From positions 2,852,001 to 2,916,000 of the forward strand of contig OZ287068.1 in assembly GCA_965645245.1 (NCBI GenBank): a stretch of DNA of 64,000 nucleotides, given 5' to 3'. The notes under the pieces are model-generated. The model was not told the DNA's origin. It saw only the letters and a list, made by a program, of their open reading frames with translations, and made no database searches. Positions within the stretch are counted from its first letter, which is position 1. Each line of letters starts with the position of its first letter. Source of the stretch: Massalongia carnosa. Its lineage: Eukaryota. The position numbers and the translations under genes are program-made. This document shows, piece after piece, positions 57,002 through 64,000 of this stretch.

Positions 57002-60000
57002 ATGGCTCCTTCTGATAGGGATATCCTGCCTAATAAGTAAGCATGTCGACTGTATCTACGCATGTTGTATGATGACTGAAGTTCTTTTTCTTAGCATTAA
57101 AGCGTTGAATTATGATATCTCCTTGTATGATCTTGAGCTTGGAGGCAAGTTCAGCTTTCAAGGCACGGTCAAGATTGAAGCAGAGATCACATCGCCCACG
57201 AATAGAATCACGCTCAACTCTATTGATCTTAAGATCCATGGGGCTGAGATATCTGGCGATGGCATCACCCGTAAGATCCAGTTTATGCAATGGTCAAGCG
57301 TTGACTGCATGGCTGACATTCATGCAGCCCAGATGGCATCAGATATTTCTTATCATGCCGAATCTCAACGCGTGACGTTCACGTTCCAAGAGGAATTGAT
57401 TCAGTCGAAGGCTGCCGTATTGCAGATCAAGTATTCAGGTATCATGAACAACACCATGGCTGGATTCTACAGATCAGGCTACAAGCCAGTGGTCAACCCT
57501 GCACCCTCTGTTCCCAAGGAGGGAGGCTATCATTATATGTTCAGCACCCAGTTCGAGTCAAGTGATGCTCGACGAGCATTTCCTTGCTTTGACGAGCCAA
57601 ATCTAAAGGCTACGTTCGATTTCAGCATTGAAATCCCCGAAGATCAGGTGGCGCTGAGCAACATGCCGGAAAGGGGGGTTCATCAAGGCAAAAACGGCCG
57701 CAAAGTGGTGTCCTTTCATCGAACGCCGTTGATGAGTACTTATGTAGGTTTTAATATCATTCGTTTACCTCCTCCAAATATTGAATATCCAGCTGCTGGA
57801 ATTTTTCATCATAATCCATCTTTGGACCCCTTTTCTAGTTTTAGTTCAAATGTTACATGCTCAGCTCTGATGTCTTGACATTAAATGATTCGTAGCTCCT
57901 GGCATGGGCCCTTGGCGATTTGGAGTATGTCGAAGATTTTACGCAAAGAAAGTACAACGGAAGGCGATTACCGGTGAGAGTATATACAACAAGAGGATTA
58001 AAAGAGCAGGGACGTTTTGGGCTCGAAAATGCCCATAAGGTGGTTGACTACTTCTCCGAGGTCGTGAAACCGAATTCCCCCTTGCAACCGATCATGCTAA
58101 CGAGGAAACCGAAATAGATATTTGGCATTGATTATCCATTGCCCAAAGTCGATCTACTGGCGGTCCACGAATTTGTGAGTCGGACCAAGAACCGCTATGA
58201 TCAAATGCATACTTGTTGTAACGACATCTAAGCCGATCATGTGTTATCCTAAGCTGTTTTTTGCAAAGTACGTTAAACTGACACGAGTCTTTCAGTCACA
58301 CAATGCAATGGAAAATTGGGGTCTTATAACATATCGAACCATCGCACTTCTTTATGACGAGGACTCCTCAGACGCCAGACACAAGAACTGGGTAGCCTAT
58401 GTAGTAGCACATGGCAAGTCCTAAGGTCTCCAATTCAGTGCAAATTTCTAACTACACTTCAGAGCTTGCTCATCAATGGTTTGGCAATCTCGTTACTATG
58501 GACTGGTGGAATGAACTGTGGCTTAACGAGGGATTTGCAACTTGGGTTGGCTGGCTAGCGGTCAACCGATTTCACCCAGACCAACTCGTTTGGAGCCAAT
58601 TTGTGGCAGAGGCTGTCCAAACAGCGTTCCAGCTAGATGCGTTACGGGCATCACATCCAATTGAGGTACCTGTCAAAGATGCCTTAGAGGTGGATCAGAT
58701 ATTCGACGCTATTAGCTATCTCAAAGGTAGCTCGGTTATCAGAATGCTTAGCAACCACTTGGGCGTGGAAGTTTTCCTCTCCGGAGTCTCTGGCTATTTG
58801 AAGAGGCATCAATATGGTAAGTTTGGGACTTAGTCTCAGGAGGTCGTTTACTTATTTGTCGACAGGGAATGCAACCACTAAAGACCTATGGGAGGCTTTA
58901 AGCAAGGCATCTGGCAAAGATGTGAATAAGTTCATGGTGAATTTCCTAGCCAAGAACGGTCCTAATATAAAAGCGTGGCTAAAAGAAACCAGGACCCATG
59001 GATCCGAGAAATCGGGTTTCCTGTTCTTACTGTTGCTGAAGAGCCTGGTCAGATTGCTGTTCGCCAGTCGCGGTTTCTCTCCACGGGCGACGTCAAAGCA
59101 GAAGAAGACAAAACCCTATGGTGGATTCCTTTGGGCTTAAAGACTGATGCCCAGGCCAAAGAAGAAGTCGTTGGAGCATTGACGACAAAGGAGGAGATAC
59201 TTCGTAACATCGACGAAACATTCTATAAGCTTAATACCGATCAGATAGGGTTCTATAGAACAAATTATCCACCGGGCCGATTGGCCAAGCTAGGTGCATC
59301 AAAAGATAGGCTTTCTATTGAGGATAGAATCGGGCTCGTGGGTGATGCTGCAGCGCTTGCTATTGCTGGTCATGCAACGACAGCATCACTCTTGACTTTC
59401 CTCGAAAATTTCAAAGATGAGATACATCATGCGTATGTCAAGAGTCAGTCTCTGTACAGGCCTTCACTAACAAGCAGCAGTGTATGGGTGCAGATCATTG
59501 GCACTTTGACTAATATTCGATCTGTCTTTGCCGAAAATGAGAGTGTCGCAAATGGGCTGAAAACGTTCACTTCAAGGCTTGTTGAGGCGGCAAACGAAAA
59601 GATTGGCTGGGAGTTTGGGCCAAACGATGACTACCTTACCGGCCAGGTTCGTGCCTTGCTCATCCGTACTGCGGGTGGCGCAGGACACAAAGGGTAAGTC
59701 GCTGATTGGGGTGTAGAGTGATGGAGACTGAAAAACCTCTATAGGACGGTTGACGAAGCCATACACCGATTCGAAGCATACGCATCGGGTGATACAAAAG
59801 CAATTCATCCTAGCCTGCGGTTGGCGGTTTACGATATCAATGTTCGTGAAGGAGGCAAACCAAAATATGAAGCAATTAAAGAAGAGTATAGCAAAAACAC
59901 TTCAATCGATGGCAAAGAGACCTGTTTGTACGCACTTGGCCGGGTCCAGACGGTCGACTTGGTTCGGGACTTCCTCACTTTTCAATTTTCCGATCAGGTC

Positions 60001-60336
60001 GCCATTCAGGATACGCACAGCGGCTCGATTGCTTTAGCAGCAAATCCAACAGCAAGAGGTGCTATGTGGGGGTGGATCAAAGAAAACTGGGAGACTGTGC
60101 ATAAGAAGCTCTCGGGTAATCCGGTCGTCATTGATCGCTATGTGAAGACAAGCCTTGAGAAATTCGCAAGCCATGAAGTGGAGAAAGACATCACCTCGTT
60201 TTTTGCTGACAAGAATACGAAAGGCTATGACCGAGGCCTTGTCCAGGTGTCTGACACTGTTCGCGCAAATGCAAATTACAAAGAACGTGATGAAAAGCTG
60301 ATTCTAGAATGGCTCAAGGCTCACGGGTACGTCTAA
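57002..60336 (+). CDS. APE2: M1 family zinc aminopeptidase (Ape2/Aap1-like), multi-exon
   Basis: [72 protein letters not shown]1-like C-terminus. Confidence 0.93.
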
Positions 60337-60814
60337 ATCTAGCGACATCGGCTTACGGGGAATATCAAGCAATGATGCTAAGGGATATTTGGAACGTGAA
60401 TGTGACATTTGAGTCGGCATGCCCTTAAAATAGACATGTATTTAAGCCAAAAGAGCTGCTGCCCTGCAGTGGTAGATATTTGATGGCAAACAAAACAATT
60501 ATGGCGCCTGTGACTCTATCACCACTACAAAGGATGATGATCATAAAGTAGAAGTGACATTTGTCACTCACACGGGGTCAGAGGTAGAGTATAAGGCGTA
60601 GCGCCTAAGCTAGAACACTTATGGAGTAGGTCCCCGTTTGTCACTAAGTAATAGGTACTCTTAAAGAAGTGACATCCTCGCTCCTATAGTAACCTAAAGC
60701 CCTCCTCTGTCAGCCATTCTCTGTCAGCGCATCTTCTCCTGGCTCAAGAGACTTTTTTATCTGACTGACAACTATTCCTCAACCCTTTCCGCCACTCGTT
60801 ATCGAATCGTCAAG

Positions 60815-61788
60815 ATGAATCCAGAGTGGTAAAAGGTCCTCTTACACGGAAGAAAAAGTACAGAGTACTAACATCACTGATCGAATAGAGTTATTTCCTC
60901 GAGACTGAAGCCAGAACATACCCTACTTTTGTAGTCTTCTTCATATGGATAGATTACTTCATGGAGCAGTCGGCAGCTTAGCTAACGAGCTTTCACTTGC
61001 AGATATGACTATCTATTCAAGCTCCTCTTGATTGGGGATTCCGGGGTTGGAAAGTCATGTCTATTGCTTCGGTTTGCCGATGATACATACACTGAAAGCT
61101 ACATTTCCACTATCGGGGTGGATTTTGTACGAGCTCCCATCCAACAAGCTAAAATTTCGCAAGGTGAGCTGACAACGATGGACAGAAAATCCGAACAATC
61201 GAGCTTGATGGCAAGACCGTAAAACTTCAGATCGTACGTAACGCAGTCAAGACAAACTTTCCAAGCTTATGCTTCTTCAGTGGGATACGGCGGGTCAGGA
61301 GAGATTCCGAACTATTACATCCTCATATTACCGTGGAGCGCATGGGATCTGTGTAGTCTACGACGTGACAGATATGGACTCGTTCAACAACGTTAAGCAG
61401 TGGCTTCAAGAAATCGACCGCTATGCTACAGAAGGCGTAAACAAACTCCTCGTGGGCAATAAAAGCGACATGTCGGATAAGAAAGTCGTTGAGTATACCG
61501 TCGCAAAAGTAAGTCTTACCGCTAGATTTCGACATGCCTGTCTTCTATCTATAGAGCACTGAATCGTTGACCTTTGCATTTACCACGCAACAGGAATTCG
61601 CCGATAGCCTTGGCATCCCATTTCTAGAAACATCGGCTAAGAATGCCTCCAATGTTGAACAAGCCTTTTTAACAATGGCACGACAGATCAAGGAGCGAAT
61701 GGGCACCACAACGGCCAATAACAAACCGACAGTGCAAGTCGGGCAAGGTCAAGGTGTGCAGTCAGGATCAGCGGGCGGCTGCTGCTAG
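60815..61788 (+). CDS. YPT1: Rab1/Ypt1 GTPase
   Basis: [54 protein letters not shown]-terminal GGCC. Confidence 0.98.
60826..61002 (+). other. Putative [D3,4] spliceosomal twin intron (stwintron) as YPT1 intron 1
   Basis: Internal intron 60829-60888 (GTAAAA...TACTAAC...TAG) splits the outer donor. Its removal yields GTG+AGT = GTGAGT. Outer branch GCTAAC and acceptor CAG at 61000-61002. Confidence 0.8.
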
Positions 61789-64000
61789 AATGAGAAACGA
61801 TGTTTTTGGGAGGAGCCATGGATGACATGGGGGGCGGACGCCACAAATTGCATGATGAGTTCGAGAACTATCGGCAGGAGGGCCGAAAACTTCTCTGCGT
61901 GGGTCAGGCTTGCCATGTATCGTTTACTATGAGTTTTGTGTCTGTGGCTTATGGAAGGGAGTCGGGCGATGTGTGCGTTTTAGACCAGTACATTTCTTCC
62001 ACCTTCTCTTTTTCTCTTAAGTGGAGCTTCGGAGGCGAGAATGAAGCTGTCGATAAACCCTTCTTCGCTTTTTAATGGGCTCCGGGTGGGAAGGAGCTTG
62101 TCGCAGTTAGTTCCGGGTTTCATTTTCTGGGATCACGTTTTACTCCCTTCAAATGCCACCAATCAACTATCTCCATTTATTTAACCTTTCCACAAAGCAA
62201 ATCAATTTCATCTATTAAATCATATCTGTAACTTTACAGATACAGAATATCTGCCATTCTTCCTTCGCTTCAACCTTCACACTAATTAACTGCCATGTCG
62301 TGTATGTGTATGTAGGTTAAACTCTTCTTCACCGTTTCAGAGCAGTAACTTACAGGTATAGAGAACTTCGTTTCTCATATTCTAAAGAAGTCATCGGGCA
62401 CCATGACTACTCCGTTCGTTTCCAATTATAAGTTCTTAGACAGTATTTAGAAGCGTTTGCTGACGTTGCTTTTCAGTTTTGAAAAACCTGCTCTGCCCAC
62501 CGATACTACTAGGTTCGGGTTTGGGGTTTATCGTATCACAAATTGGCTACGTGAGGAGATGGGACAAGGCTTTAAGGAAGCCAGAGAGGATAGTTGTCTT
62601 CTGAGAAAGGAGATACAAGCGGATGTGTCCTGTGAAAACGGAGGTACAAGATGTGAGCGACAGGATTTCAGAGCTCGATTCAAGATTTATGACGATGTCG
62701 GCCCAGACCATTAAAGAATATAGCAAGAGGAAGAGGTGAGATCATTCAGCGACGTCGAGATAGCATTGTGCGGCATTTACTTCGATTAGCCATCTAAAAT
62801 TCTTCATCTTCTAACCTAATTTCGCTATGTATCACGTATGTTTTCGAGGTATGCTATTTATATCTATATGGGATTCTACAAGAGATCTTTTCTTCAGGTG
62901 TCCTTCTTCCAACACTTCTTTTCCCGTCTTGCTTGGAGTCTTCTCCTTACTTGAGATAACCTTTCGTTAATTCGTTACCACGTCACTGCGGTAACTCGTT
63001 TGTTCATCCGCTCACTCGCTCACGTGAACGCTATGCTTACGTGGATAGGATAAACGGAAAGATGGTGGTTTAATTCATTCTAATCTTGTCTCTCTCCCCT
63101 TCCCCGCCTTCGTCTTTCACTACCTCGCATCCCTCTTCTTTCTATGTCTACCCACTCAAAAGGAAGAGTAAGGTCGAGTAAACTTCAAAATTTACTTAGT
63201 CATCCATCACTTATCTCCCTACTGACTTGCTGACCTACCAATATGGGGAAACCCCATTGTGCAAAACCGCGTATCTCATTTTCATTCCCAACGACGACGA
63301 CGAAGTAGGCCATCAGAGCACCACTGTAACAGCAAATAAAGGGGCTCTTGGAAGCTAAAATTTGGAGCGATGAGGACGAGGAAAGCTCAATAAAAGAGCA
63401 CAGAGTTACAACGAATATAGGCTCCGAAGCACATCAAAAACAGCGAAAAGATGGGTTCACCGGTCTCCTCCATTCTTCCCCTCTGGGCAACCCATATCTA
63501 CCTTCACGTTTCCCACGCCACCGTTCATCCTGACGCTCGTGAAGATTTCAGAGGGCACAGACACAGGCAATGAAGCAAGCCCGGCATTTCTAGGTATTGA
63601 GTTACAGTACCACCGCCACCGCATGGAATGGGATTACAGAAATGGCCCAATTACGTTTGGTCAAGACTTGCTATTTAATTGACCGCTATGGCTCTGTAGT
63701 TTTGTGATGTCCTTTCCCTAAAGGGGGGGCCTCATGTATCTAGAGGGGGGCAGGGGCTGATCAGGCCCCTTTTTTTAGAGGGTGGAGGAACTGCAGGAAA
63801 GGCACGCAAAGAAGCTAGTTTGATAAGGGAAAATATTTGGAATTTCCAAGACCTACATATTATACTAACCCCCTTTTAACTCCGGAGCTGAAGTGCGATG
63901 ATTTCCAGACTTTGAGGTCACGGGCTACAAAGGGTGCTTGAAGTATACCAGGTCAACACTCTCTTTCAGTGGGCTTGGGGAAATGGCTTTCTGAAGGTAT

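Follow-up and report, generated by a model that had tools for sequence, protein, structure and literature searches.

Intron 1 of YPT1 in Massalongia carnosa as a putative ancient [D3,4] donor-disrupted stwintron

The window analysed here, a 64,000-nucleotide stretch of Massalongia carnosa DNA (assembly GCA_965645245.1, contig OZ287068.1, positions 2,852,001 to 2,916,000), contains a YPT1/Rab1 gene on the + strand with a spliced product of 201 amino acids, running from MNPEYDYLFK to GGCC (Table 1). The product combines a Ras-family domain (PF00071) with a Rab1-type sequence and a C-terminal CC, as expected of Ypt1/Rab1, and its tail is identical to those of Cudoniella, Cadophora and Drepanopeziza entries. 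The gene is essential in S. cerevisiae (YPT1) and in A. nidulans (rabO). A DNA search of the species' own genome (52.16 Mb) with positions 60700-61900, using a program that skips common words, returned one match. DNA contigs of three runs, possibly the window's own source, cover 60500-62000 with zero letter differences, and the contig of a fourth run, from another study, matches wherever it is present, its coverage omitting 60813-60878; none of the four runs contains a splice joint. Upstream of the gene, within 59800-60336, a reading frame stops at 60336, and its end, judged by eye, looks like the PF11838 and PF01433 aminopeptidase sequence in P0119, a model from Pyrenodesmia that joins an aminopeptidase part to Ypt1. 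This likeness suggests a conserved gene order together with a fusion artefact arising from a missed first exon.

Table 1. Features of the YPT1/Rab1 gene in window coordinates; a slash marks the split or junction
Feature	Position	Strand	Details
Coding exon 1	60815..60825	+	ATG AAT CCA GA = M-N-P plus two bases of Glu4; ATG at 60815
Split external donor, 5' half GTG	60826..60828	+	Base-by-base read
Internal U2 intron, 60 nt	60829..60888	+	GTAAAA 60829-60834, TACTAAC 60866-60872, TAG 60886-60888
Split external donor, second half AGT	60889..60891	+	Rebuilt donor GTG/AGT
External intron, 3' part	60889..61002	+	GCTAAC 60981-60986, CAG 61000-61002
Coding exon 2	61003..61126	+	A TAT GAC ... GVDF; begins ATATGAC
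Intron 2, canonical, 59 nt	61127..61185	+	GTACGA...CAG
Coding exon 3	61186..61233	+	
Intron 3, canonical, 47 nt	61234..61280	+	GTACGT...CAG
Coding exon 4	61281..61508	+	97-100% identity to annotated Pezizomycotina Ypt1; Pfam PF00071
Intron 4, canonical, 85 nt	61509..61593	+	GTAAGT...CAG
Coding exon 5	61594..61788	+	Ends in CC motif and stop

The first intervening sequence, 177 nt in total, differs in organization from the three canonical introns that follow. When all GT or GC donors between 60818 and 61002 were combined with all AG acceptors up to 61039, the only single cut that remains open to the CC-stop was 60826-61002, which begins at the poor donor GTGGTA, in agreement with an earlier note on this DNA which held that MNPE-YDYLFK requires joining of 60825 to 61003 across a non-consensus donor. 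The same note stated that splicing from the internal donor at 60829 directly to 61003 creates a stop, and this one-step product indeed reads MNPE-stop, as does, with its stop at codon 5, the product of excising 60829-60888 alone (60828 joined to 60889). None of the eight ATGs in 60500-61010 opens an unspliced reading into exon 2. The reading frame hence requires the loss of the whole intervening sequence. A base-by-base read further bears out the two remaining statements on the layout, namely that a 60-nt internal intron with TACTAAC and TAG lies between donor nucleotides 3 and 4, with every coordinate correct, and that its excision rebuilds the donor GTGAGT.

The internal intron possesses its own donor, weak in the window, branch element and acceptor, and it interrupts the external donor within its six bases; the rebuilt GTG/AGT fits GURWGY, the donor consensus given in the available text of PMC7138796. 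The external intron, 117 nt after rebuilding, likewise has its own branch element (GCTAAC) and acceptor (CAG). A pattern describing the full [D3,4] motif, composed only after the site was known, matches a single site in the 64 kb (60826), compared to a mean of 0.1 and a maximum of 1 in 40 shuffles.

Based on this arrangement and on the comparisons described below, we propose, with a probability of roughly 0.88, that YPT1 intron 1 is an ancient [D3,4] donor-disrupted stwintron that is spliced inside-out. In the first step, the spliceosome would pair the nearest sites, GTAAAA (60829) with TACTAAC and TAG (60888), whereupon 60 nt would leave and GTG would be joined to AGT. Next, the restored GTGAGT would pair with GCTAAC and CAG (61002), and excision of the 117 nt would create GA/A TAT GAC, i.e. 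MNPEYDYLFK. We infer this splicing order and the intermediate from the observed layout, conservation and frame consequences; the regulatory checkpoint on Rab1 expression suggested in the earlier note would be a speculative addition. Inside-out splicing by intron definition is established for other stwintrons, according to the accessible part of PMC7138796.

To place the window among its relatives, metagenome contigs were scanned with part of exon 4, whereby at least 586 stretches matched, at least 527 were confirmed and 80 were kept. These comprise 60 genomic sequences with a complete intron 1, 7 that are intronless there, and 13 that stand outside the counts (7 with exon 2 without the start, 6 with no exon 2). 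Collapsing the 61 sequences (the window and the 60) by shared 8-mers left 44 distinct ones (the window and 43 orthologs), which are kin drawn from 80 of at least 527 stretches, so that all counts refer to sequences and not to independent events. By inspection, all 60 genomic orthologs read ATG (N/Q) P GA, then GTN, and then GT (GC in the internal donor of a single locus, L137), and in all 60 intron 1 ends with YAG ahead of RTAYGAY. Donor bases 1-3 are GTA in 28 of the 44, GTG in 14, and GTC and GTT in 1 each.

Class membership was approximated by the nearest C-terminal tail among named proteins, a rough proxy whose panel lacks a Pezizomycetes or Orbiliomycetes reference and whose class labels are those we take the tail-matched proteins to have; on this basis the 44 divide into Dothideomycetes (13 plus 2 weak), Leotiomycetes (9, including the window), Sordariomycetes (6), Eurotiomycetes (2), a Lichinomycetes-like sequence (1), four-class ties (5) and sequences with no tail (6). 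The [D3,4] element thus appears to span about four or more classes of Pezizomycotina, and would best be explained as inherited, at a minimum, in the main classes of filamentous ascomycetes. A plain intron at position 1 was found in 0 of the 44 sampled sequences; the complex intron is missing in none of them, and intron 2 in 4. The latter (L097, L116, L135 and L149) are Dothideomycete-like by tail and have kept the twin intron; intron 2 is also absent from L091, L141 and L147.

The internal acceptor was identified using a rule that is blind to the bases downstream: it takes the earliest branch-like element lying 25 nt or more into the intron, and then the first YAG beyond it. The rule returned a site in 44 of 44 sequences, delimiting internal introns of 59-183 nt, and the donor rebuilt across that site carries G at +5 in 43 of 44 and GT at +5/+6 in 40 of 44. 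By comparison, other YAGs of the same introns (n = 171) provide G at +5 in 30 cases and GT in 7, while 300 shuffles of the intron interiors yielded a rule site in a mean of 17.4 of the 44 (maximum 28), G in a mean of 3.7 (maximum 12) and GT in a mean of 0.9 (maximum 6). In L148 the rule misses, picking a different TAG; a second acceptor is located 7 nt further on and is followed by AGT. The second halves of the donor found among orthologs, AGT, TGT, GGT, AGA, AGC and CGT, are all within the donor consensus. Conservation of the internal branch point, the acceptor and the following NGT, for which the earlier note had proposed an alignment across Pezizomycotina, is therefore observed among the orthologs. 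At the other end of the external intron, the last 40 nt contain CTRAY in 34 of 44 sequences and a YTNAY, which is weaker, in 9; one sequence has neither.

The principal alternative is a single reaction from GTGGTA (60826) to CAG (61002), with the inner signals as bystanders or relics in the window species. Such direct splicing yields the correct protein, and weak donors do occur in these genes, 9 of 123 canonical donors being without G at +5. However, GT at +4/+5, as in the direct donor, is present in 0 of the 123, and in a donor matrix constructed from these 123 donors of introns 2-4 (the canonical donors hence being scored in-sample) the mean scores are -1.8 for the direct, 7.7 for the internal, 7.2 for the rebuilt and 7.3 for the canonical donors. 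Direct splicing also leaves unexplained why a branch element, YAG and NGT are kept in otherwise dissimilar introns (43 of 44 compared to at most 12 in shuffled ones), and the window species itself retains a perfect TACTAAC and TAG plus AGT.

Pairing with U1 was assessed as the number of in-register pairs with the 5' end of a candidate U1 from the window genome, in which three U1 snRNA candidates were detected (C3:3019294-3019442, C14:1359852-1360001 and C3:2635327-2635472), all below the Rfam gathering score. Free-energy duplex folding was dropped in favour of these counts, as the direct donor slid into the internal register. In all 44 sequences the rebuilt donor pairs better than the direct one, and in 41 of them the internal donor does so too. 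In the window the counts are 5.5 (direct), 6.0 (internal) and 7.0 (rebuilt), while the ordinary intron 2 reaches only 4.5; given these thin margins and an intron 2 below the direct donor, U1 pairing by itself leaves room for direct use in the window. The internal donor of the window has moreover decayed to the non-consensus GTAAAA, with a score of 0.5 that is the lowest of the 44 internal donors, and the first splicing step may accordingly be slow in this species. Considering all of these observations, we regard direct splicing in the window as unlikely and assign it a slight probability.

A second alternative concerns the joining of the internal donor to the outer acceptor in one step, with a codon-5 stop that is read through or edited so that the protein gains one residue. 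Since only three bases are left behind, failure products of this intron stay in frame, and one-step products have precedents: [D1,2] stwintrons are documented to be mis-spliced in one step between the distal sites (PMC12403724, available text), and in L. starkeyi the [D6,7] stwintron undergoes alternative splicing in one step (PMC7138796, available text). The one-step product stops at codon 5 in 42 of 44 sequences (TAA in 28, TGA in 14), and the intermediate that has lost nothing but the internal intron does so in 38 of 44. In the two remaining sequences, L097 and L103, base +3 is C or T and the one-step product is a full-length protein with an added Ser or Leu; the rebuilt donor of L103 is also poor (GTTAGA, score -0.1). 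We consider these two as candidates for escape from obligatory two-step splicing, judging from their sequence. Obligatory two-step splicing, as put forward in the earlier note, is thereby strongly suggested for the 42 sequences with a stop, including the window, but does not extend to these two orthologs.

Read-through is nevertheless very improbable as a general explanation. The extra codon is missing from all 7 intronless contigs, which read GAA TAC as a junction of the 60825/61003 type predicts; these contigs also lack every other intron within their span, are assumed to derive from cDNA, and are in no case tied to a genomic locus of the same species. The stops are moreover of two kinds, unlike the product of one recoding rule, and read-through offers no reason for a conserved internal acceptor. 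As codon 5 is a stop in most species, wrong or unfinished splicing would instead lead to a four-residue peptide and not to an altered GTPase. Selection for the stop itself is inseparable from selection for the donor, as a purine at +3 serves donor consensus and stop alike.

Two introns around a micro-exon, or recursive splicing with a donor wholly downstream of the internal acceptor, would draw on the GT one base past that acceptor in 40 of 44 sequences, but both are highly improbable, because joining 60828 to 60889 makes the codon-5 stop, the bases past that GT are off the donor consensus (e.g. TAT, TAC, CTC) and three representatives have no GT there (AGA twice, AGC once), the two-intron combinations being argued from sequence and not enumerated by script.

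The first two stwintron reports reportedly date from 2013 and 2015. As far as the open text of PMC5587772, PMC12403724, PMC7138796, PMC5639578, PMC6616335 and PMC9024468 extends, the types named are [D1,2], [D2,3], [D4,5], [D5,6], [D6,7], [D7,8] and [A2,3]. The earlier note listed [D1,2], [D2,3] and [D5,6] as best described, and these are indeed in print, but the list omits the Lipomyces types [D4,5], [D6,7] and [D7,8]. It further called the [D3,4] configuration less commonly reported, a wording at odds with the available text of the open-access stwintron papers, in which no [D3,4] stwintron at all was found. Within that literature, [D3,4] is the only position of the six-base donor without a stwintron found in print, the [D1,2], [D2,3], [D4,5] and [D5,6] types all being published. 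Similarly, no ypt1 stwintron was found in the open-access literature, the word 'ypt1' being absent from the available text of PMC9024468, PMC8469720, PMC12403724, PMC5639578 and PMC6616335, and a literature search, judged by its listings, returned no paper on YPT1 intron 1.

Comparison to the known systems, as they are described in the available portions of the papers cited, highlights both shared and unique features of the YPT1 element. The [D5,6] stwintron of rtnA/AN5404 (PMC6616335, PMC9024468) is likewise located in the first intervening sequence and present across Pezizomycotina classes; it has been linked to alternative splicing and called arguably the oldest stwintron described. The YPT1 element differs in gene and split position, is placed in the near-invariant MNPEYDY start, and has failure products that keep the frame and meet a stop at codon 5. 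As it resides in a housekeeping gene and shows no loss in the 44 sampled sequences, it may rival the rtnA [D5,6] stwintron as the oldest. The bioDA [D2,3] stwintron of Sordariomycetes and Botryosphaeriales (PMC5639578) also consists of an internal U2 intron in the external donor of a conserved gene whose intron position is likewise old, and it too is excised inside-out. However, bioDA is split after base 2, so that mis-splicing shifts the frame, in contrast to the split after base 3 in YPT1; in addition, the internal intron of bioDA has repeatedly been lost, and a plain intron is present in other classes, whereas a plain intron is seen in 0 of 44 YPT1 sequences.

In Lipomyces lipofer, the [D4,5] stwintron of a reticulon-like gene (PMC7138796) has a neighbouring split position and is also the first intron of its gene; its intermediate has been demonstrated experimentally. 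Together with the [D6,7] and [D7,8] stwintrons of sister species, it is restricted to one yeast genus and a poorly conserved N-terminal region, with the split at base 4 or later (PMC7138796). The [D1,2] stwintrons (lipS, a DHA1 antiporter and the sister stwintrons of Hypoxylaceae/Xylariaceae; PMC5587772, PMC12403724) have the two-step logic in common with YPT1; they represent the commonest type, can propagate, and can overlap with [A2,3], resulting in a 1-nt intron shift. The YPT1 element, unlike [D1,2], leaves 3 nt and has no second DNA match in its own genome. Membership in the propagating [D1,2] sister stwintrons was considered and rejected on the split after base 3 and the single genome match. 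With three bases left behind, the YPT1 element represents a clean test system for in-frame mis-splicing, uORF-type control and codon-sized intron shifts.

The origin of the element may lie in a frozen 3-nt intron shift, in which the inner donor would correspond to the apparent outgroup site and the outer boundary to a position three bases upstream. In 28 of the 44 sequences, GAG TA/GT places the inner donor after the second base of a Tyr codon. Plant and Toxocara models with a mistaken start end with SDYLF and an Umbelopsis model with NDYLF; as annotation proxies, these ends point to an inner acceptor for plants, a nematode and a mucoromycete, and the end RYDYLF of a Saitoella model, by the same kind of proxy, points to the outer position in Taphrinomycotina. 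Human RAB1A presumably uses the inner position as well. Outside Pezizomycotina, the position of the intron is read from annotation proxies only, since the outgroup DNA scans yielded, in viral contigs, only intronless-looking Rab relatives (1 locus in one search, 77 in another) and, in prokaryote genomes, 7 matching loci. Two of the latter type, L160 and L161, are short low-coverage contigs in two bacterial assemblies, 91-94% identical to eukaryotic Rab1, and probably represent contamination. The available text of PMC3504004 holds nothing on the Rab1 intron position. Alternatively, the element may have originated by duplication of the first three donor bases, by analogy with the model of PMC7138796 in its accessible part, and GTA/GTAAGT, as present in many YPT1 orthologs, fits this donor-duplication model.

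The external intron contains, in 10 of 44 sequences, an ATG-led open reading frame of at least 15 codons that continues into exon 2; the remaining frames have 1 and 5 such cases, and 500 shuffles a mean of 3.6 (maximum 11). A universal in-frame reading frame of this type was rejected, as 32 of 44 sequences, the window included, have no ATG-led reading frame in the external intron. Coding-like stretches were noted in L083, L094, L120, L123, L137 and L124 (the last 86 nt before exon 2), in L116 and L147, and in L080. Gapless identity at nt 4-45 from the acceptor, taken over six Helotiales-like loci that were picked by eye, is 0.53 in the external intron and 0.28-0.39 in other introns, whereas gapped identity of the same six does not separate them (0.61 versus 0.55-0.61). 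The four of these loci that align gaplessly display 17, 14 and 25 changes at first, second and third codon positions (post hoc permutation p 0.007), and when L116 and L147 are compared over nine codons, a block likewise picked by eye, 5 of 5 changes fall at third positions. Annotated leaders from Cadophora, Lachnellula, Apiospora and Xylariales resemble, by eye, the external-intron peptides. Against a coding role, an in-frame stop separates two ATGs in L137, and L123 has no ATG; several of the loci with such a reading frame also have weak external branch elements.

Taken from the sequences, these patterns hint at a second Ypt1 N-terminus in some relatives, though not in the window species. If the reading frame is real, a half-spliced RNA, or an internal promoter, would give rise to a second Rab1 N-terminus. 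Extending this, the stwintron could act as a conserved switch, the half-spliced RNA being a message of its own that would encode a second Rab1 in several lineages, and the element may also be a frozen 3-nt shift, a scenario that we consider doubtful. In such a switch, the intermediate junction would turn the normal start into a four-codon upstream open reading frame (MNPE-stop), and ribosomes would start at an ATG in the retained external intron, producing a Rab1 whose N-terminus, about 20-60 residues long, would differ; the lineages concerned would be Helotiales-like, Xylariales-like and some Dothideomycetes.

Many mis-started Ypt1 models in databases are plausibly explained by the [D3,4] element. 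Such models begin with MNPEC, with MNPEW-Y-V or with MNPEY running into residues of no relation, or they carry an unrelated leader that ends in RYDYLF, and they recur in Verticillium, Exophiala, Trichoglossum, Lecanicillium, Aureobasidium, Colletotrichum and others, alongside correct MNPEYDYLF models; the sample is biased towards odd models and yields no rate. We also note one contig, L093, Xylariales-like by tail, in which the downstream introns are gone while 279 nt (L093:1-279), closing with a branch element and CAG, are kept ahead of exon 2; two codons upstream of the acceptor there is an in-frame ATG, and the contig ends short of the internal junction. This single contig is possibly a transcript in which the 3' part of intron 1 has been kept, either partly spliced or internally started.
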